The notes below the pieces were generated by a model. The model made no database searches. It saw nothing but the letters and a program-made list of their open reading frames with translations, and was not told where the DNA came from. A DNA stretch of 64,000 bases from a virus, in IMG/VR virus record IMGVR_UViG_3300045988_068751; one strand, written 5' to 3'. The stretch's first letter is position 1; every line of letters starts with the position of its first letter. This document shows positions 14,259-42,441 of this stretch, in pieces. The translations under genes were made by a program, and so were the position numbers.

Positions 14259-14270
14259 GTGTACATAGTT

Positions 14271-14558
14271 ATGAGTAAATACGATGATTGTCATAGAGTT
14301 GACAATAGATATACCACAGCTATAGGAATGAGCGTGTGGAGATTCTTTAACATTGGCAAATATAAGAATCAGAAAGTGAAAGACGTCTGTTACTTTAATC
14401 CATTCTATGTAGCATGGTGTCTGGAGAGCTGGCAGGGATTTAGTCTTACTAGCTACGAACGTTCCAATTACATGAAAGGACTGGAACGTCAGTTAGAGAA
14501 AGACCCTGAAGACCAAGAACTCATCTTAAAGGTGAGTAGATATAAAACCATTGTTTGA
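14271..14558 (+). CDS. hypothetical protein (ATG 14271; the ORF track starts at GTG 14259)
   Basis: ORF track. Confidence 0.5.
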   Translation: MSKYDDCHRVDNRYTTAIGMSVWRFFNIGKYKNQKVKDVCYFNPFYVAWCLESWQGFSLTSYERSNYMKGLERQLEKDPEDQELILKVSRYKTIV

Positions 14559-14856
14559 TATTTTTACAGAAATGATATAATCTTCCACCATAATGGGTAC
14601 GCCCGGAGACTAATGCAGAGCATCTCTTATACCAAACAGTATCTTCCTTTAATACTGGAGAGATGTCTTATCGTGAGATAAGGCAAAGGAGTGTGGCACA
14701 GGAAGGTGGATTCCTTTACTTGTAATAATATTTTTGTTCGTTTTATTACAGCATATCCTCCCGTGACGGGAGTGGCATCATGACTAAGCCTTTACGTGGC
14801 GATGCTATAAGTAAGTCAATAGACTGAAACTAATTAGTCATAATTAACCATTAAAG

Positions 14857-14877
14857 ACCTCACAACGTATAGGTAAG
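14857..14877 (+). promoter_or_regulatory. conserved promoter-like motif copy 3 (ACCTCACAACGTATAGGTAAG)
   Basis: motif family. Confidence 0.45.
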
Positions 14878-14889
14878 TTGTAGTAAATC

Positions 14890-15180
14890 ATGAAACAGTA
14901 TTTTTATTTAGTGACTAAATTAGTAAATGGAGAACTGACTCCACTTAGAATCTTTTTGCAATATAAGCTAGCCATTAGATTTGGAAGAAATTACGCAACT
15001 AAACACCCATATGCTTTAGTAGGTTTACACAAACAAGTAATATCTAACAGTGCAGACATTACTTGGATATGTAATCTATATCCTTGGAATCAGGTAGAAC
15101 CAGACATGATTGAAGCGGAAGAGGAGGTAATGCTTGATATCCTTGCTGATAACAACATGCTTATTGACCGTAAATCTTGA
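14890..15180 (+). CDS. hypothetical protein
   Basis: ORF track. Confidence 0.5.
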   Translation: MKQYFYLVTKLVNGELTPLRIFLQYKLAIRFGRNYATKHPYALVGLHKQVISNSADITWICNLYPWNQVEPDMIEAEEEVMLDILADNNMLIDRKS

Positions 15181-15211
15181 TTACATCATTAATAATTAAC
15201 GTTTCACTAAA

Positions 15212-15232
15212 ACCTTGCATTGTATAGGTAAA
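15212..15232 (+). promoter_or_regulatory. conserved promoter-like motif copy 4 (ACCTTGCATTGTATAGGTAAA)
   Basis: motif family. Confidence 0.45.
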
Positions 15233-15236
15233 ATGC

Positions 15237-16064
15237 ATGAAGATTATGGAATTATCACTTGTTAACAAACTGAAACAATTACCAATCGAACCGACTTACG
15301 TGGTTACAGAGAAGAATGCCGACATATTGAACGGCCTTCATCTTCTTGAGACAAACAGGGAAATTAAGTCTAACAAGGTAAACGACCTAGTTAAGGCTAT
15401 TCAAGAAGGGCTCTTCATTCCTCCTATCATTGTGTCTGCTGGAACATTCACTGTCATCGAAGGTGCTCACAGAACATCTGCATATAGAGAATGCTTGCGC
15501 AGAGGTATTCCCTTTACTATGAAGTTGTACTTGGTAAAGGATGTTGAAGCAACCGAAACGTGTATGCTTATCAATAACACACAGAAGAGTTGGAAGGCAA
15601 ATGACAGACTCATATCATATGTCAAGCAAAAGAAGAGCTCATACATAATACTGAAATCCTTCATGGAGAAGCATTCTAAGTATTTCATGAAAGGTACAAT
15701 GTATAACGTGACGGCAGCTCTAGCACTTCTAAGTCCTCTATCTTCTAATAATGCTGAAGCTGCATTCAGAGACGGCACCTTGGTTATTACGGAAGAAATG
15801 GTGAAGAAAGCTATGCCTACGCTTAATCAACTGAAACTTATTGGCGAAATCCTTGGTGCTAGAAGAGGTACAGGAGAGGCTGACTTGTCTCCGTTTAGGA
15901 GATATAGAATCAAGGATTGGATACGAGCCAGAGATATTATGAATATTTCTGTAGACCAGTTCATGAATCGGTTGAAGCGTAGAGTCGATTCCGGTAGGTG
16001 GGAAGAACCTTCAGAAAAGAATTGGTTCAATTCTTACATAGAAGTGGCATCGTTAAAACGCTAA
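15237..16064 (+). CDS. ParB-like nuclease-domain protein
   Basis: motif IIVSAGTFTVIEGAHRTSAY resembles the ParB/Srx-fold GxxRxxA box. Confidence 0.5.
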   Translation: MKIMELSLVNKLKQLPIEPTYVVTEKNADILNGLHLLETNREIKSNKVNDLVKAIQEGLFIPPIIVSAGTFTVIEGAHRTSAYRECLRRGIPFTMKLYLVKDVEATETCMLINNTQKSWKANDRLISYVKQKKSSYIILKSFMEKHSKYFMKGTMYNVTAALALLSPLSSNNAEAAFRDGTLVITEEMVKKAMPTLNQLKLIGEILGARRGTGEADLSPFRRYRIKDWIRARDIMNISVDQFMNRLKRRVDSGRWEEPSEKNWFNSYIEVASLKR

Positions 16065-16091
16065 GGAGTATTACATTTCCATATTTTTAGA

Positions 16092-16112
16092 ACCTGGCAG
16101 TGAGTAGGTTAA
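16092..16112 (+). promoter_or_regulatory. conserved promoter-like motif copy 5 (ACCTGGCAGTGAGTAGGTTAA)
   Basis: motif family. Confidence 0.4.
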
Positions 16113-16126
16113 CTGCCAACTTATCT

Positions 16127-16639
16127 ATGACTAATGAATTAGCAGAGGAATATAGAGAGCTTAAACGTAACTTAATACCCATATTGTTACAGACATGTGG
16201 TAAAGAGCGTTTATGTGATGCTGTAGACAAATGGTTATTAGTAAAATCCGGTATCAAAGTAATATCTAAATCATGGTATGAAGGTGGATTGCCTGGTAAA
16301 GAGTATGTGGTAATTAAGGATACTTCAGTACTTGCCAGCTATCCCTCTAAAGGTGCTAATTATGAACATCGTCTTGCGAGGTATAGAGCCTACACTAAGG
16401 CATTTAACCATGTAAGAGAAGAAGGAATACCTTTGGCTCCTATACAGGTTGATAAATTTACCAAAGTACTTGTCAATGGAATAACATTATGCCTTATAGG
16501 AACTTTCGAAGGTAAATCAGAGAATGATTTTATCAAAGAGATATCTGGTAAGGTTTATGTAAAGGCAGGTACTGATTCGGTAGATGTTATTGACCTGCAA
16601 ACTAGAAGAACTAAAAGATATAAAGTTCAGTACACATGA
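16127..16639 (+). CDS. hypothetical protein (ATG 16127; the ORF track starts at GTG 16100 inside the motif)
   Basis: ORF track. Confidence 0.5.
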   Translation: MTNELAEEYRELKRNLIPILLQTCGKERLCDAVDKWLLVKSGIKVISKSWYEGGLPGKEYVVIKDTSVLASYPSKGANYEHRLARYRAYTKAFNHVREEGIPLAPIQVDKFTKVLVNGITLCLIGTFEGKSENDFIKEISGKVYVKAGTDSVDVIDLQTRRTKRYKVQYT

Positions 16640-16980
16640 AACTATATTTTAACTATACACAGAACTTCATCCTCGCAGATTGTGAGGGTGAGGTTATTGA
16701 TATGAGAACTGGTCAGCCCTCTGATGCCAAACTACAATCTCGCCTTAATAGTTACAAAGATGAAACTACATCTAAGTGGATTCCTATTAAGGACTTAGGA
16801 GATTTGTATGATATGTCAGATAGTGATGTGACAGTTTCTGGCAGCTTAATCACGATGTCCATTGACGGACATAAGGTTACAGCTAGACATAAGGTGTCAG
16901 CAGGAGTTAATTATGTACAACTGACTGGACACTTCCCTCGCTACTTCTGGAAAGGATTTGCTAACTTATTAACTAAGTAA
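16636..16980 (+). CDS. hypothetical protein
   Basis: ORF track; ATGA overlap. Confidence 0.5.
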   Translation: MKLYFNYTQNFILADCEGEVIDMRTGQPSDAKLQSRLNSYKDETTSKWIPIKDLGDLYDMSDSDVTVSGSLITMSIDGHKVTARHKVSAGVNYVQLTGHFPRYFWKGFANLLTK

Positions 16981-16982
16981 CA

Positions 16983-17216
16983 ATGTTATCGCAGATACAA
17001 TTTAGGAAACAGAGAATACCATGTACTCTCAATCATCAATCTATTACTTCTCGTGAAGGTAAGTTGCTTCTTGGGTTTGGAACTAACCAGCCCATGATGC
17101 AGCAAGCCGAAAGACAAATTGCTAAACATCAGGTTCCTTATGAGACATCTGATTTAAATGGCATGCTTTCAATCATTATTGATTATTCTATTATCAGCAG
17201 TGTAACAACAATCTAA
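16983..17216 (+). CDS. hypothetical small protein
   Basis: ORF track. Confidence 0.4.
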   Translation: MLSQIQFRKQRIPCTLNHQSITSREGKLLLGFGTNQPMMQQAERQIAKHQVPYETSDLNGMLSIIIDYSIISSVTTI

Positions 17217-17226
17217 CCTTTAAACA

Positions 17227-17469
17227 ATGGATATAAAGAACAGCCCTATAGTTAAACATGCAATTAACAATGACAAATCTCTTCTTCCCGGAATCATCGC
17301 TTACAGCTGCAAAGAAGCTATAGTAATCGCTAAGAGAGAATGCGGTGATTTTATAGACTTCGCCAAGGAGTGGATACAGTCCTCCAAACAGCTTTGCGAA
17401 GAAGAGAACATTCCATGGGAACAGATTAGGACAGCAACTGGAGATTCTATTGATAATTATATATCATAA
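17227..17469 (+). CDS. hypothetical small protein
   Basis: ORF track. Confidence 0.45.
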   Translation: MDIKNSPIVKHAINNDKSLLPGIIAYSCKEAIVIAKRECGDFIDFAKEWIQSSKQLCEEENIPWEQIRTATGDSIDNYIS

Positions 17470-17485
17470 TCTCCTTTCCGTCTAA

Positions 17486-17561
17486 AAGAGAGTCTGATGA
17501 GTCGTTGAAAATTACGACGAAACTTCACTGTGATTTGGCACGTCACGGTGGAGTCACTCTT
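17486..17561 (+). ncRNA. hammerhead self-cleaving ribozyme, type I (open stem I). Core CUGAUGA 17494-17500; stem II gucg/cgac with G10.1-C11.1; GAAA 17519-17522; stem III 7 bp; cleavage after GUC at 17555
   Basis: all conserved core nucleotides and three helices read directly from the sequence. Confidence 0.8.
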
Positions 17562-17578
17562 AACCAATATTAGTAATT

Positions 17579-17740
17579 ATGAAACTCACTAAGAATAAGA
17601 AAGACAATATAATAATTAGTTCTGCCATTGGAGCATTAGTAATTATTAATATCATGTTGCCTACAGCTGGCGATTTCACATATGTAGTCGGAGCTATAGG
17701 TATTGTTGCGGCCATAGGAGTCTGGTTCTTACCAGACTAA
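17579..17740 (+). CDS. small hydrophobic membrane protein (53 aa, MKLTKNKKDNIIISSAIGALVIINIMLPTAGDFTYVVGAIGIVAAIGVWFLPD)
   Basis: manual ORF (<60 aa, not in the track). Confidence 0.35.
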   Translation: MKLTKNKKDNIIISSAIGALVIINIMLPTAGDFTYVVGAIGIVAAIGVWFLPD

Positions 17741-17781
17741 TCAAATAATTAATAAATCAAACTCTTTAAATTTAGAAGGAA

Positions 17782-18405
17782 ATGAAGAAATTACAAGAAC
17801 GCCTGAAAGCTGGTATTGATTTCAATCCAAAGAAAGACCCATGCTATGATTCTATCGTAGAAGAAGCTGAAACTATTCTTGGGCATGTACTTGATGCCGC
17901 TGAAGGCAAAGAAGTTCCTTACAAGAACTTCACTGTTGGTGGTGGTTATGACGAAAGGAAAGACCGTGAAATCGTCATTGTTCGTGGTGACGGTGAAGAC
18001 TTGCTCGTTATGGAAGTTAAGGACGAATCTATCCGTGTCCAACCTCATGAACGTCATGCTGTCACTCTGAATGAGGATGACGAAGCTTCTGCCCGTGAAA
18101 TCTTTGACATTCTTATGAAAATGAGAGACCAGAAACAAGGCTCTACATTTAAAGTCGAAGAAGGCAAAAAAGCTTTGTTTGAGTTTCTGAAGGATATATC
18201 TAAGGCTATCGGTGCTGATGTTGAAGGTGTTGAAACGCCAGAAGAGCTATTAAAAGCTCTCAAGGCTAGAGAAGAAGGCAATGAAGGAGCCATAGAAGAT
18301 TTGATGCGTGAACAACGCATTCATCTTACTATGCACATGCTTGACTGTTCCCGTGAGAAGGCAGAGAAGATTGTAAAGAACTTTGAAGAAGCTGTGAAGC
18401 GTTAA
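17782..18405 (+). CDS. hypothetical acidic protein (207 aa)
   Basis: ORF track. Confidence 0.55.
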   Translation: MKKLQERLKAGIDFNPKKDPCYDSIVEEAETILGHVLDAAEGKEVPYKNFTVGGGYDERKDREIVIVRGDGEDLLVMEVKDESIRVQPHERHAVTLNEDDEASAREIFDILMKMRDQKQGSTFKVEEGKKALFEFLKDISKAIGADVEGVETPEELLKALKAREEGNEGAIEDLMREQRIHLTMHMLDCSREKAEKIVKNFEEAVKR

Positions 18406-18415
18406 TAATGCCAAG

Positions 18416-18486
18416 AGAGGATTAGTTCAATGGTAGAAGGCTAGTTACAACTAGTAGTGGGAGTTCGAATCTCCCATCCTCTCCCA
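18416..18486 (+). tRNA. tRNA-like element with perfect T-arm (GGGAG-TTCGAAT-CTCCC), acceptor agaggat/atcctct and encoded CCA. The body is ~5 nt too short and the anticodon loop is only 6 nt (TTACAA); aberrant or pseudo-tRNA
   Basis: manual folding. Confidence 0.35.
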
Positions 18487-18565
18487 ATCATTTTAAAGTT
18501 TTGTATAGTTTAGGCTTGCCCCAGTCATGTTGTGAAACACACTTGGGCTTTTAATTAGTAAATTT

Positions 18566-18919
18566 ATGAATCAAAACGCAGTTAATTCTTTAAGGAATGC
18601 TAAGAGGCATATTCTTATTAGCGATGTTGATAAGTTCAATAGCCATTTATTGTATTACATATTAAATGTTATATATGGAACACATGACCATATTAAATTA
18701 AATACGATACGTGAAAGACTTGAACGTGAGCTTAAATGGTCATTGGACGAGCATATTCCTGATAAGGATGTAATTAGAGAATGGCTTGACAATGATTACC
18801 CTCTTATATGCATAACAGAGTTATCGTTTGACAGTTGTATTAAACTTGCCAACGATTTCCCAGATTATGAAATTGTAGTTTATAGTTGGATGAAACATGA
18901 AGGAAACTTACCATTTTAA
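18566..18919 (+). CDS. hypothetical protein
   Basis: ORF track. Confidence 0.5.
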   Translation: MNQNAVNSLRNAKRHILISDVDKFNSHLLYYILNVIYGTHDHIKLNTIRERLERELKWSLDEHIPDKDVIREWLDNDYPLICITELSFDSCIKLANDFPDYEIVVYSWMKHEGNLPF

Positions 18920-19055
18920 ATGGAATAAAAATAACTCCTAGGCTATTAAGTCTGTAATGGGTACGCTACTCAATGTAGCACAGGAAGATACTGATAGCTT
19001 TTTTGTTCAGGTTTGAGAGACCTCCTGGCATGAGAGGATAATCATGCCGTTCTAT

Positions 19056-19574
19056 GGGCCTAGATTTGGTTTTGACAGGCGATTACAAGTTAGTAAGACG
19101 TGTAGAGTTCGTACCAACTCTTTAATAATGATACAGCAATTTAAGTGGAAACACTGAAGTAAGAATGGCAGCCTAAGCTGCTGGCTTATCTATTAATTTA
19201 GCTCTAAGTCGGGTTAATTGGAGAGACCTAGAAACAGAAGAGGTGTGGGAAGAAGCGTATAGAGCAGCCCACTTAACTTGAAAGCCAAAGGTTAGTAAAG
19301 CTGAAATCTCCGCTACCTATCTATGGGTTACAAATAGAAACGTTCTCCAACGTAAATGGAGTGGTGGAGCGACCGTTCGGTCAAGCCCAGTTTGGTAGTT
19401 TGTGAACAACTAAGTCGTAGCCCTACGAGGGAGACGTAATTGGTGAATTAACACTCGGCTTCTTAGTAAAACTACCTACATGCTGAACTCAACAGCTGAT
19501 GTAATAAAATAGAGACACACGTAATCTTATTAATGAGGGTTGTTTGGACGGCGGTTCGACTCCGCCTAGGTCCA
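19056..19574 (+). ncRNA. ssrA: putative tmRNA (SsrA-like). The 5' end GGGCCUAGAUUUGGUUUUGACAGG resembles the E. coli tmRNA 5' end. Acceptor stem GGGCCUA/UAGGUCC carries G3-U70. The 3' T-arm is GGCGG-TTCGACT-CCGCC. The candidate tag ORF reads (A)GNTEVRMAA-stop, with the stop in the loop of a gcagc-cuaa-gcugc hairpin
   Basis: manual alignment to remembered E. coli SsrA 5' region and tag/helix-5 arrangement; 519 nt is longer than typical. Confidence 0.55.
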
Positions 19575-19623
19575 CTATTATTAACGTTTAAATATCAATT
19601 TTAGCTGAATTGGAACTATTAAA

Positions 19624-19905
19624 ATGAAAGCAAGGTTATTAAAGAAACTTCGCAAAGAATCAAAGAAACTGAAATTAATAAGAGGTGAGGATTATCAATA
19701 CATAGTTACTGATAGTCCTCATGATATATTAAGACCAAAGCTTGATACTTACTACAGTGGCACATACTACTGTGGTCAAGAATTATTATTTGACGAAGAT
19801 GTAATTGCATGGTTACATCAATGCAGACGTAATTGGATTCTGTCCGAGATTAAACGAATGCGTGTACATCTGCGTAAATCTCGAATTAGAATATATAAAG
19901 AGTAA
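19624..19905 (+). CDS. hypothetical basic protein
   Basis: ORF track. Confidence 0.45.
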   Translation: MKARLLKKLRKESKKLKLIRGEDYQYIVTDSPHDILRPKLDTYYSGTYYCGQELLFDEDVIAWLHQCRRNWILSEIKRMRVHLRKSRIRIYKE

Positions 19906-19931
19906 TTGTTTCACTAAAAGTTATTGAAATT

Positions 19932-20429
19932 ATGGGAAAGAGGTCAATATCCGACGATGACATCGTTCGGATTTTTAACACGGTAAAGGCAATGAATCCT
20001 GGGCCTTTTAAGATTACAGATGTAGTCAGGGATTTAAAGAAGAATGGCTTCCCAAGGCCAGAGAACTTCATGGCTGTTTTGCGTAAGCAGGGAGTGATTG
20101 AACCTGACGGTGCTATCTATACTAAAGGATTTATGTGGAAAGAACATGGCCCTTTGTATAAGACTAGAGTCATTGAATTGATAACTATCAGCAGGAAAGA
20201 AATGGCTAAGATACAGAGAGATGCGTATGCTAAGAGAATGGCTATTAAAGCTGGCACTTACGTAGCACCTCCTAAACCTAAGCCACAAGCTGAAATGGAA
20301 GCTGTTACAGAAGCGGAAGAAGACAAACATCTGATTCCTATTACACAAGCTGAAATGGAAGCAATCAAATTCCTGAAATCGAGAGGTTACAGAATCACTA
20401 AATTAATAACAGTTGAACAGATAGTATGA
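19932..20429 (+). CDS. hypothetical protein
   Basis: ORF track. Confidence 0.5.
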   Translation: MGKRSISDDDIVRIFNTVKAMNPGPFKITDVVRDLKKNGFPRPENFMAVLRKQGVIEPDGAIYTKGFMWKEHGPLYKTRVIELITISRKEMAKIQRDAYAKRMAIKAGTYVAPPKPKPQAEMEAVTEAEEDKHLIPITQAEMEAIKFLKSRGYRITKLITVEQIV

Positions 20430-21121
20430 AGTTTACAGTACAAGGGAACACGCCATTCAGTGCACATATTTGCCAATATCTATATGATTTGGAAAGCAAC
20501 TTTGCTAAGGAGAAATTATCATTGCCACTTAGTCAGATTATAGCTCATATCTTATATGGGACTAAGAGAATCAGACTTGGTAATGAAGCTATTCCGTCCG
20601 AAGCAATCACTATTTTGGAAGAATGTATTGAAGCTAATCAGCCAATACCAGTCAATTGTATCTTCGGCAGTTCTGAATCGGAGAAAGACTATGTTGATGT
20701 TGCTGAATTTCAATCTCTTCAAACGTTGAAGGATATAAGCAGGAGAGTTGCTAAATTCTACTATCCAGGCTTGAACATAAGACTAGATGTAGTAGGCGAT
20801 TCAAAATACGTTAGTAAGGTGATGAGACTGGCAACAGTCCTGGGTGGTTTTACCATAGGCACACACCAATCAGCTATTAACGTATCATTCGCTCACTACC
20901 GGCCAGCACACTATTATTATAAGTCTATTCCGTCTCGAAACATTCTACGAGGTGGATATGTTCCAGCTTGGGACGGTAGAGGTTATTTATACTTAGAATC
21001 CCCACATGATATTGTGAGTATGATAACTACAGCTGACAATCCTGATATTCTTTCGACGACTGTGGTGTTAGAAGCAAACGAAGAGACGGTAGACCTTCGT
21101 GTAGACTATCTAATACCGTAA
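20426..21121 (+). CDS. hypothetical protein (231 aa)
   Basis: ORF track; ATGA overlap. Confidence 0.55.
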   Translation: MKFTVQGNTPFSAHICQYLYDLESNFAKEKLSLPLSQIIAHILYGTKRIRLGNEAIPSEAITILEECIEANQPIPVNCIFGSSESEKDYVDVAEFQSLQTLKDISRRVAKFYYPGLNIRLDVVGDSKYVSKVMRLATVLGGFTIGTHQSAINVSFAHYRPAHYYYKSIPSRNILRGGYVPAWDGRGYLYLESPHDIVSMITTADNPDILSTTVVLEANEETVDLRVDYLIP

Positions 21122-21383
21122 ATCCACTATTGACGAATAGTGGTAGCAAAACTTGGTCTGAAGAACCAGTAGACATACTCCGGAGTGTGTCTATGACTTA
21201 AAGGCTATATCAAAGAGTTGAAACCTGTATCTATTCGAACAGTAGAAGTTCACCTGATTAAGCATCAGAAAACAGTAGTGCAAATCTACTATAGATATTG
21301 TGTAAGAGAGAATCTACACGGTCTGCATTATATAATCAGCATGCAGATAGGTCACCAAGCAAACCTCTTTCCTGCCTGGTCAA

Positions 21384-21440
21384 GTGTGCATTACGGTCTG
21401 TAAGTGGCGAGCGGGTTAACGTATGTCCGATTGCCGTAAT
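21384..21440. other. 9-bp inverted repeat gcattacgg ... ccgtaatgc enclosing a 39-nt loop, upstream of gene 21500
   Basis: seen directly. Confidence 0.3.
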
Positions 21441-21499
21441 GCCGCTTGTTTATTGTTTAGAATAAAGAAAGACTCTCATAACAATAAATTTAACAAGAG

Positions 21500-23194
21500 A
21501 TGGAAATGAAAGGAGCACAAAGGCCAAGGAGGCCTTACCCTAATGCCGCACGTCAAAGGCGGGATGAGAATAAACCTAAGTTTGTGGATAATAATCAGTT
21601 ATTCATAGACCAGTTTGTTAATCTTAAGAAATGTCTTCAGCCACGTACCTACGTGCAAGTGGCTAAAGATATGTATCCTTTATGGAAAGCTAATCCATTA
21701 CTATGTACTAAGTTTACTGCATATACGAGAATGATAACTCGTAAATGTAGAATAACTACCCCGGAAGGAGTTATACAACTTGATACACAGCAAGGAGAAG
21801 GTTTGAAGAATGAAGGTATAATGAGAATGTTGTGGTTGGCAATCTATCACAAACCCACATTCCATGCCAACATTGCTTATTTTGCAGCAGCTGGATGCTG
21901 GAAAGATTTCATTACTATGATGGCTTTAGATGTTCAACTCCATGGCTTTAAGCACAGATTGGATTGGGACTTCTTCAAGAAAGTCATATTCGCAGGTCTT
22001 GCCAACGGTCAGACATGTGATTTAGTAAAGAAGTATCTTCCTCGTGTTCGTTCCAGTGTTGCATGTAAGACAGATGAGGCAAAAGCACGTAACACAGTAG
22101 CCAAATTCTTGGCGGAAGGCCTTTATGGTAAACCTAAGGATGAAGGAGACTATTCAACCTATCGTAAATATAGGAAGATGAAGAATAGCGGGAAAGCAGC
22201 CCAATGGCAGCAGTTAATCAGTCAAAAGAAATTCTTGGAAATTGATTTTGACACTGTTACTGGAAAGGCGCTGGCACAGCTAGTAGGCTCTAAATTCCTC
22301 AAACATCAAGGTCTTAAAGAGAAGTATCAGAACTGGTTGAAGAACCGTAAGAAGCCCTCTAATAGCGGATTTCTACATACTCTGTTCAAACCATACGGAT
22401 TGGATAAAATTGCCGAAGAGATTCCAGAATTTATGGAAACTTCTATTAATGCAAGTTTCAATGTATTTGTTGATAATGCTAAACGCAATAGAGTAGCTCC
22501 GTTGTTGGTAGTAAGAGATATAAGTCATTCTGCTAATGGTGAGATAGAGAATAGCGAAACATCTGCTTACAGTTTGGGTAAAGCATATGCTTTATATCAT
22601 TCTGAATTACTTCCTACAATATTCAAGAACTCCTATGCCGTGTTAGAGGATAACATGGTTCTACGTAAGTTCAAAGGTCAGAATGTCATTGAGAAATGGA
22701 AATCTGACAAAGAAGAAGCATTATGCCAGAATCCTTCTATTATTAATATAGCAGAAATGCTGTGTAAAATGAAAGAAGATTATGGTGTGGATGAAGGAGA
22801 GTTCCCTAGAGGCTGTGTGGTAATTACTAACCATACATATTTTACCAAGTTGAACAACCAAGCATTCGTGGAATTTAAGCAAAGACTGCTTAAAGCAAAT
22901 TTCAGTAAGGAATTTGTAAGAGCATTCAAAGTTATCATTTGGAGAGTTCCTTTAGCATATAAGGGAAGACCTAATGTGGCTTTGGTTCCAGGAGTGTCAA
23001 ATTGCTTCTTAGTAAATGGACTTAATAATTCAACATCCTCATTTATTACTGGAGAGAAGAGGTTCCAGGTGCCTAAAACCACTAGAGACATCTTTAAGCA
23101 TGCTATGAATCAAGAGTTGCTTAATATGATGATTCTAGAGAAGGATGTTGTCAAGAAGAATGCAAGCGTGCAGAAGAAGCCTGTGAAGGCCTAA
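21500..23194 (+). CDS. hypothetical protein (564 aa)
   Basis: ORF track; no motif recognised. Confidence 0.6.
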   Translation: MEMKGAQRPRRPYPNAARQRRDENKPKFVDNNQLFIDQFVNLKKCLQPRTYVQVAKDMYPLWKANPLLCTKFTAYTRMITRKCRITTPEGVIQLDTQQGEGLKNEGIMRMLWLAIYHKPTFHANIAYFAAAGCWKDFITMMALDVQLHGFKHRLDWDFFKKVIFAGLANGQTCDLVKKYLPRVRSSVACKTDEAKARNTVAKFLAEGLYGKPKDEGDYSTYRKYRKMKNSGKAAQWQQLISQKKFLEIDFDTVTGKALAQLVGSKFLKHQGLKEKYQNWLKNRKKPSNSGFLHTLFKPYGLDKIAEEIPEFMETSINASFNVFVDNAKRNRVAPLLVVRDISHSANGEIENSETSAYSLGKAYALYHSELLPTIFKNSYAVLEDNMVLRKFKGQNVIEKWKSDKEEALCQNPSIINIAEMLCKMKEDYGVDEGEFPRGCVVITNHTYFTKLNNQAFVEFKQRLLKANFSKEFVRAFKVIIWRVPLAYKGRPNVALVPGVSNCFLVNGLNNSTSSFITGEKRFQVPKTTRDIFKHAMNQELLNMMILEKDVVKKNASVQKKPVKA

Positions 23195-25462: not shown

Positions 25463-25501
25463 TTGATGAGTTGTGGGTAATCTCGTAAAACCCTCTGTCG
25501 C

Positions 25502-25573
25502 CCCATTACTTCAGTGGTAGAAGAGCAAATTCTAAACTTGTATGGCGTTGGTTCGAGTCCAACATGGGGCACT
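25502..25573 (+). tRNA. tRNA with CUA anticodon (amber-suppressor-type; loop UUCUAAA with U33, A37), type I, amino-acid identity unknown
   Basis: acceptor gccccat/atggggc, D cttc/gaag, anticodon stem gcaa(a)/(c)ttgt with one A-C mismatch, T-arm gttgg-TTCGAGT-ccaac. Confidence 0.7.
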
Positions 25574-42045: not shown

Positions 42046-42441
42046 ATGTTTGTAAAATTTGTAAAAGATGATAAGACAATAGAGGAAGTATCAATTTCAT
42101 CAGAGATGATTCCATTTCCTACTGATATAGTAGTGTTAGAAGCTGGTAAATTCACCGTAGAATCTAGAGAATATGATATACTTGATGGAACTTGTACAGT
42201 TATATTAGACCAACAAATTACCTGGACAGAACATCCTCAAGAGTATAGTGATGCAATGCTTGCATACAGGAAGCGTTGGAATAATACAATTGATTTGTCA
42301 TGTGAAGACTTCTTTAAGATGAAACAGTTTGTACAGACTGGTTCCAAACTGCAAGCAGTTAAGCATGTAAAAGAATCTGCTAAATGTGGTTTAAAAGAAG
42401 CTAAGGATTTTGTTGACACTTATTGCGATTACGTATTATGA
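42046..42441 (+). CDS. protein with C-terminal ribosomal bL12 (L7/L12) CTD-like motif
   Basis: AVKHVKESAKCGLKEAKDFVDT vs bL12 [23 protein letters not shown]. Confidence 0.45.
   Translation: MFVKFVKDDKTIEEVSISSEMIPFPTDIVVLEAGKFTVESREYDILDGTCTVILDQQITWTEHPQEYSDAMLAYRKRWNNTIDLSCEDFFKMKQFVQTGSKLQAVKHVKESAKCGLKEAKDFVDTYCDYVL

Follow-up and report, generated by a model that had tools for sequence, protein, structure and literature searches.

The segment 17486–17561 of the IMG/VR virus record IMGVR_UViG_3300045988_068751 is, as judged from its sequence, a genuine type I hammerhead self-cleaving RNA for which cleavage is predicted, and it is one of a large family of such RNAs that lie between small genes of gut phages. 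Positions are those of the window, i.e. the whole stretch of 64,000 nucleotides that was analysed. Based on our findings we consider it probable, at roughly 85%, that the RNA encoded by 17488–17561 is a cis-acting type I hammerhead of a gut-phage subfamily that splits a same-strand multi-gene transcript at C17555/A17556. The window adds one hammerhead, confirmed by sequence, to the many known in phages, and its main interest is that it exemplifies a large phage subfamily that is missed by the Rfam thresholds.

Core, helices and topology of the element

All invariant bases of the hammerhead core are present at 17488–17561 on the + strand, i.e. CUGAUGA, GAAA, the A15.1-U16.1 pair and the GUC triplet, and three helices are arranged around this core (Table 1), the layout of the complete segment 17486–17561 being AA GAGAGU CUGAUGA GUCG-UUGAAAAUUA-CGAC GAAA C..G UC ACUCUU. 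The pairs adjacent to the core are A17556-U17493 (1.1-2.1), G17501-C17518 (10.1-11.1) and C17523-G17553 (15.2-16.2), and stem II may be extended by a fifth pair, U17505-A17514. Position H17, at which the hammerhead class demands a base other than G, is C17555. The topology is that of type I, i.e. stem I is open and holds both the 5' and the 3' end, and stems II and III are closed by loops.

A type I hammerhead had already been called here in a sequence-only reading, and this call is upheld by the core sequence, the topology, the fold and the comparative evidence. The CUGAUGA core, a stem II of the form gucg-loop-cgac with the G10.1-C11.1 pair, the GAAA including A15.1 and the C15.2-G16.2 pair of stem III, all of which it had listed, were found, and the GUC triplet is present as G17553, U17554 and C17555, the predicted cut after C17555 being the position expected from the core geometry. 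Two of the helices, however, have to be described differently. Stem I has the proposed length of 6 bp and the proposed 3' strand ACUCUU, but its 5' strand is GAGAGU and not 'aagagu', and its distal pair is a G-U wobble; stem III, which had been given 7 bp, actually consists of 13 consecutive pairs, from A17522-U17554 through U17534-G17542.

Table 1. Parts of the hammerhead, flanking genes, and loci with several ribozymes
Feature	Position	Strand	Remarks
Unpaired AA, directly 5' of stem I	17486–17487	+	Family-conserved flank, candidate tertiary-contact element
Stem I, 5' strand GAGAGU	17488–17493	+	Pairs with 17556–17561
Catalytic core strand C3-A9, CUGAUGA	17494–17500	+	Invariant in alignment A2 (21 unrelated members)
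Stem II GUCG/CGAC (G10.1-C11.1) and loop UUGAAAAUUA	17501–17518	+	17501–17504 pair with 17515–17518
Core G12 A13 A14 and A15.1, GAAA	17519–17522	+	Read from sequence
Stem III hairpin	17522–17554	+	13 pairs, A15.1-U16.1 and C15.2-G16.2 through U17534-G17542; 7-nt loop UUGGCAC
Predicted scissile bond	17555–17556	+	C17 is C17555; bond 3' of C17555, before A17556 (position 1.1); from core geometry
Stem I, 3' strand ACUCUU	17556–17561	+	Pairs with GAGAGU
Upstream ORF, 80 aa	17227–17469	+	Last of a tightly packed same-strand block; stop 18 nt before stem I; L027 homologue 44%
Downstream hydrophobic ORF, 53 aa	17579–17740	+	ATG 23 nt after the predicted cut; 55-aa hydrophobic ORF at this place in L027
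Next gene	17782–18405	+	Follows the 53-aa ORF
Multiple or interleaved ribozymes, L090	2806–2875, 3609–3678	-	
Multiple or interleaved ribozymes, L010	2300–2362, 3306–3384	+	
Multiple or interleaved ribozymes, L002, L043, L063, L082, L104			

For 17480–17570 the fold of minimum energy coincides exactly with the three-way junction of a hammerhead (-27.4 kcal/mol, z = -2.96). In the minimum-energy fold of a 221-nt context stem I is swapped for other pairings, and stems II and III persist. Stem I is weak, as its 6 bp include three A-U pairs and one G-U pair, and competition from other pairings is common for short open helices; the loss of stem I in the longer context argues for co-transcriptional folding and not against the motif.

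The site is also the single match in the whole window, on both strands, to a loose type I descriptor that comprises the core, GAAA, a base other than G at position 17 and minimum stem lengths of 4, 3 and 4 bp. In 300 dinucleotide-preserving shuffles of the window this descriptor gave 0.033 matches per window, and with stems of at least 6, 4 and 7 bp the 300 shuffled windows contained no match at all. A second hammerhead or another ribozyme was not found in the window by a full-window Rfam search (E≤5), by our family model R1 with filters off (see below) or by the type I descriptor on both strands.

The family in viral contigs and its covariation

The subfamily is defined by a stem II with a nearly invariant loop (GUCKUUGAAAAUUAMGAC), an open stem I of 5–6 bp, an unpaired AA tail at the 5' side and a GUH cleavage site. 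The 30-mer that consists of the core, stem II with its loop and GAAAC occurs as an exact copy in 28 IMG/VR contigs, about 20 of which are from the phage lineage of the window; the others carry unrelated hammerheads whose stems I and III are completely different. The 18-nt stem II module is likewise identical in 28 viral contigs, and if its three inner pairs are left free, more than 120 viral contigs are found among the matches listed. The 137 matches listed have a type I layout in 123 cases, a type III layout in 11 and neither in 3, and their stem II covaries, with UCU/AGA in 105, UCG/CGA in 29 and UAU/AUA, UAG/CUA and UUU/AGA in one each. In the type I register, 87 of the 105 distinct matches listed form at least 5 bp in stem I and at least 4 bp in stem III, as compared to 15 of 2100 with shuffled flanks.

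Pairing was analysed in an ungapped alignment, A2, of 21 unrelated members, which excludes the lineage of the window and whose members were picked for fixed equal stem lengths. In A2 96.4% of the cells are paired, a percentage that is inflated by the choice of the members by stem length, versus 25–45% in slid registers. Both sides have changed in 11 of the 16 pairs, all 6 pairs of stem I among them, and these both-sided changes are not inflated by the selection. The values for pairing and for both-sided changes are reached by 0 of 500 shuffles. The covariance model R1 was built from A2, so that it, too, leaves out the window's lineage, and it scores the site with 55.1 bits (E = 9e-15), the runner-up in the window having 11 bits. 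As the seeds were gathered with the core and stem II pattern of the window itself, the corresponding share of the R1 score and of the family invariance is circular, which leaves stems I and III and the AA flank as the only parts that do not depend on the search pattern.

In 67 non-redundant members from the matches listed the triplet at the cleavage site is GUC (59), GUU (6) or GUA (2), i.e. there is never a G at H17. Stem III typically has 6 pairs in the family, so that the 13 pairs of the window correspond to about twice the usual length. Many loci harbour two to four hammerheads that are spaced by ~400 nt and each precede a small gene (Table 1). In other phage loci Pistol and Twister-P5 ribozymes are interleaved with the family hammerheads, and of these three Rfam at gathering thresholds reports the Pistol and Twister copies but none of the hammerheads. 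A full-text literature search with the loop sequence matched no paper.

Conservation in orthologues

A diverged syntenic relative of the window is found on a 185-kb contig, L027, where the protein encoded just upstream of the ribozyme shares 44% identity, and the one just downstream 31%, with its counterpart in the window. Within the interval the only match at the nucleotide level is the ribozyme itself, with 88% identity over 89 nt, and the flanks are unalignable. The core, stem I and stem II of L027 are the same as in the window, and stem III is re-paired in a compensatory manner, CUUCACUACU...AGUGGUGGAG in L027 versus CUUCACUGUGAU...GUCACGGUGGAG in the window. Further changes in stem III that are compatible with pairing are U-G to U-A (L017) and U-A to U-G (L008), and one A-C mismatch is tolerated in close relatives. 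In all orthologues CUGAUGA is identical and every catalytic base is intact. The UUGGCA loop of stem III (17535–17541 in the window, ~6480–6490 in L027) is kept despite the rebuilt stem.

A search for further diverged orthologues by means of two neighbouring proteins yielded only near-identical relatives and L027, and blastn of 16600–18500 against GenBank phages gave no match. Synteny was also considered for the phages L030, L033, L035 and L062, in which three features, a conserved non-coding element of 100 nt, a family hammerhead and a tRNA, occur in the same order, and was rejected, as the window proteins from 14259–23194 have no match there. On this basis we do not claim that the hammerheads of these four phages are orthologous to that of the window.

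Rfam models do not cover the subfamily

At the Rfam gathering thresholds the window contains 26 tRNAs, one tmRNA and RAGATH-34, and no hammerhead reaches the gathering score (Hammerhead_1, Hammerhead_3, Hammerhead_II, HH9, HH10, clan CL00010; RAGATH-1). In a permissive search of 251 nt RAGATH-1-hammerhead (RF03152) was the best Rfam family, with a full-length alignment at 23.8 bits (gathering 56.3), and the best match of clan CL00010 was a partial one to Hammerhead_3 at 21.3 bits (gathering 48.5). A score below the gathering threshold had been taken in the sequence-only reading as an outcome that would speak against the ribozyme; the score does lie below the threshold, yet this is non-diagnostic, as all members of the subfamily that were tested also fall short. 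L057, a canonical relative, can be aligned over its whole length with Hammerhead_1 (RF00163), and with the right architecture, but obtains only 19.3 bits versus 34, and on RAGATH-1 it obtains 24.4 bits versus 56.3. Moreover, in eight related loci with 17 hammerheads found by model R1 no hammerhead is detected at Rfam gathering thresholds, and Pistol and Twister-P5 in the same loci are.

Because every member of the subfamily tested falls short alike, we attribute the sub-gathering score of the window to the coverage of the Rfam models. Thus, Rfam at its gathering thresholds misses a whole subfamily that extends to more than 120 viral contigs among the matches listed, to crAss-like phages and to gut MAGs, and as Rfam is blind to it, ribozyme counts in phage genomes are underestimates.

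Gene context and proposed function

The ORFs around the site are all on the + strand and are tightly packed from 15237 to 17469, and no terminator-like site was found on the + strand between the upstream genes and the ribozyme. The gene context given earlier, with an ORF that ends at 17469, a small membrane ORF and a gene at 17782, proved correct, and all three are on the + strand. Among the matches listed, family members are located at a median of 7 nt after the upstream stop and 40 nt before the next start, the distances in the window being 18 and 23 nt, and just 4 of 68 are inside an ORF. The genes downstream of family members are small and of many unrelated kinds.

Taking together the sequence, the fold, the covariation in the family, the conservation in orthologues and the intergenic position on the strand of the flanking genes, we infer that the element would cleave a joint transcript and thereby affect downstream expression. 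The three-way junction would fold once RNA polymerase has passed 17561 on the + strand, and the 2'-OH of C17555 would attack the adjacent phosphate, a chemistry that is well established for hammerheads. The products would be a 5' RNA with a 2',3'-cyclic phosphate end and a 3' RNA that starts with a 5'-OH at A17556. As a consequence of the type I topology nearly the whole ribozyme would stay on the 3' end of the upstream RNA, i.e. behind the genes up to 17469, as a compact structure, and the downstream RNA would consist of a 23-nt leader followed by the 53-aa membrane ORF and the 17782 gene. As stem I is weak, with only 6 bp, the two products should separate, and the genes upstream and downstream of the cut would then likely reside on separate RNAs, each with a stability and a translation of its own. 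What hammerheads do in prokaryotes and phages is still regarded as an open question (PMC6155905).

Three other explanations are all much less likely than the cleavage of a multi-gene transcript. The same active ribozyme might trim the 5' leader of a transcript initiated a short distance upstream, providing a defined 5'-OH end for the downstream genes. This would be in line with two sigma-70-like sites on the + strand that end at 17457 and 17467, i.e. 20–30 nt before stem I, and with the location of the family members listed, whose median distance to the next start is 40 nt, but both sites match just 9 of 12 positions, and the region contains fewer sigma-70-like sites than expected by chance (15 versus a shuffle mean of 23.5). 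Bacteroidota, the likely host group, are not known to use this promoter consensus, which also counts against leader trimming. Furthermore, the genes upstream form a dense same-strand block without a terminator, and in 39% of the members listed the upstream stop abuts stem I, which leaves no room for a promoter, so that we regard leader trimming as unlikely.

Still less probable, and in our view only a faint prospect, is a conserved hammerhead-shaped RNA that does not cleave, e.g. a protein-binding site, an element that controls translation or transcription, or a decayed ribozyme. Decay would alter the core first, but the catalytic bases are all intact in the window and its orthologues, H17 is never G in the 67 non-redundant members from the matches listed, and the score of the family model is high. 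On the other side stand the fact that no Rfam gathering score is reached, the unusual length of stem III (13 pairs versus typically 6) and the UUGGCA loop, whose preservation in L027 in spite of the changed stem III hints at an extra constraint. Finally, the idea that AT-rich phage DNA matches the hammerhead consensus by chance, which might be suspected given the shortness of the motif and the known false positives of loose hammerhead descriptors, is already refuted by the shuffles (0 of 300 at comparable stems, 0.033 matches per window with the loose descriptor), by the R1 score (E = 9e-15) and by the island of conservation between diverged genes in L027.

AA tail and loop II as putative peripheral contact

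For fast cleavage natural hammerheads need a peripheral tertiary contact (PMC3088659, PMC6155905). In the subfamily studied here the AA tail and the invariant loop II may well constitute this contact, which would allow fast cleavage at physiological Mg2+. Among the 67 non-redundant members from the matches listed stem I has a length of 5–6 bp in 62, and positions -2 and -1 before stem I are AA in 65–66. The upstream stop codon overlaps the AA tail in 29 of 74 members from the matches listed (39%); in the window the stop is located 18 nt upstream instead. We also considered that the AA flank is merely the upstream stop codon and rejected this, as AA is found in 43 of 45 members, again from the matches listed, whose stop is elsewhere. 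The UAA flank might form a Watson-Crick pseudoknot with UUA in loop II, a loop that was fixed by the search pattern. The sharply conserved loop II and the AA tail are a testable candidate for a tertiary contact. An alternative hairpin (17470–17477 with 17484–17491) that would hide stem I and might act as regulatory switch was rejected, as its upstream arm is not kept in L027.

Going beyond a mere contact, one may speculate that the subfamily has an undescribed type I periphery, in which a short open stem I and an AA tail dock on the almost invariant stem II/loop module, and that its cleavage is coupled to translation of the upstream gene; we regard this combination as doubtful, albeit conceivable. 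Such docking would replace the internal loop of stem I or the pseudoknot, and where the stop overlaps the AA tail (39% of the members listed), a terminating ribosome would cover the 5' strand of stem I and delay folding. If this is true, the ribozyme would not be a constitutive cutter but a translation-sensitive boundary element of hypervariable small-gene cassettes in gut phages.

The phage, wider occurrence and neighbouring RNA elements

Most proteins encoded near the ribozyme have no family matches; a ParB-like protein is encoded upstream, and a helicase, an SPFH protein and an adenylosuccinate synthetase are encoded elsewhere. The helicase is most similar to proteins of uncultured phages from human faeces (46%), and phages of Cellulophaga and Flavobacterium come next (25%), which suggests that the window's phage, itself uncultured, is a gut phage of a Bacteroidota host.

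The stem II module is also present in the crAss-like phages cr131_1, cr272_1, cr273_1 and cr53_1 and in 39 contigs of gut or rumen bacterial MAGs, mostly from Clostridia, some from Bacteroides/Bacteroidales, Elusimicrobia and others. Moreover, the cultured Agathobaculum phages AB434P2 and AB434P3 contain an unannotated related hammerhead that has the AA tail and resembles the family in stem II but has a variant loop II. In AB434P2 (L203 1503–1560; OP172633.1 ~42214–42271) it has the hammerhead fold, a CUGAAGA core and an AUC site and lies between CDS for hypothetical proteins, the upstream stop abutting the AA tail and the downstream CDS being ~35 nt away. With these two phages the function of phage hammerheads, a question that has long been open, becomes accessible to study.

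Several other RNA elements were observed in the window. An intergenic element of ~100 nt at 14586–14700 (+) recurs with 92% identity in L035 (9345–9452, -) and with ~73% in L030 (593–674) and L033 (8519–8600, -), the latter two with an internal 24-nt hairpin cleanly deleted. It starts with a TATAAT-like box and contains a 9-bp hairpin capped by GNGA as well as a helix in which an insert is optional; no Rfam model matches it, and it may be a promoter with a conserved leader or an undescribed ncRNA. RAGATH-34 is located at 21124–21231 (+), ~3.6 kb downstream of the hammerhead (121.5 bits, gathering 60.7), and is also present in L027 (10331–10435); its small hairpin has the loop CUGAAGA, which is CUGAUGA in L027, and its 3' tail ends in UUGAAACC.

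ARAGORN detects 28 tRNA genes, which are scattered among the protein genes across 18416–52740. The tRNA at 25500–25572 (+) has the anticodon CUA and is thus an amber suppressor, which suggests that TAG is recoded in part of the phage genome. A tRNA-like gene at 18416–18486 (+), which starts 11 nt after the stop of the 17782–18405 gene, scores 49.8 bits with the Rfam tRNA model; its anticodon arm has a 6-bp stem and a UACA tetraloop in place of a normal anticodon loop, and ARAGORN cannot assign it. A phage tmRNA at 19056–19577 (+), present in L027 at 8282–8798, scores 85.8 bits, has large insertions relative to the Rfam model and is not called by ARAGORN.

Comparison with known systems

The hammerhead of the window has the catalytic core, the three-helix junction and the open stem I in common with hammerhead type I (RF00163, CL00010), but differs from it by the conserved 10-nt loop II, UUGAAAAUUA, and stays below its gathering score. 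In the type I hammerhead of Schistosoma stem I has an internal loop and a distal extension, whereas the window has a short open helix with an AA tail. RAGATH-1 (RF03152) resembles the window in being type I, in its GUC site and rather long stem III, and in a 5-bp stem I that follows an A-rich UAUAAAAU-like flank. In the RAGATH-1 consensus, however, stem II is minimal and a hairpin upstream is conserved, whereas the window has a full stem II of 4–5 bp, a loop of 10 nt and no such conserved hairpin, the upstream sequence not being conserved in L027. Twister, pistol and RAGATH-34 of phage accessory regions are similar to the window in their genomic context only, and their folds differ. Small ribozymes and RAGATH motifs were reportedly found by Weinberg et al. 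in 2015 to be associated in their genomic neighbourhoods, and the Pistol and Twister-P5 ribozymes beside family members in other loci, like RAGATH-34 downstream of the hammerhead in the window and in L027, agree with such an association.

Hammerheads of phages and prophages have been known since 2011 (Perreault et al. 2011, PMC3088659). About 40% of that set have a Watson-Crick pseudoknot between stems I and II (PMC3088659), whereas none is evident in the window. The members of the set often occur as several per locus, ~400 nt apart, as do the hammerheads of the loci related to the window, which itself has a single copy. Like the hammerhead of the window, those of the 2011 set are intergenic and on the same strand as small flanking genes of varying identity, and prophage hammerheads, which flank single genes, have been proposed to cut the long transcripts of phages into mRNAs of the length of single genes (PMC3088659).
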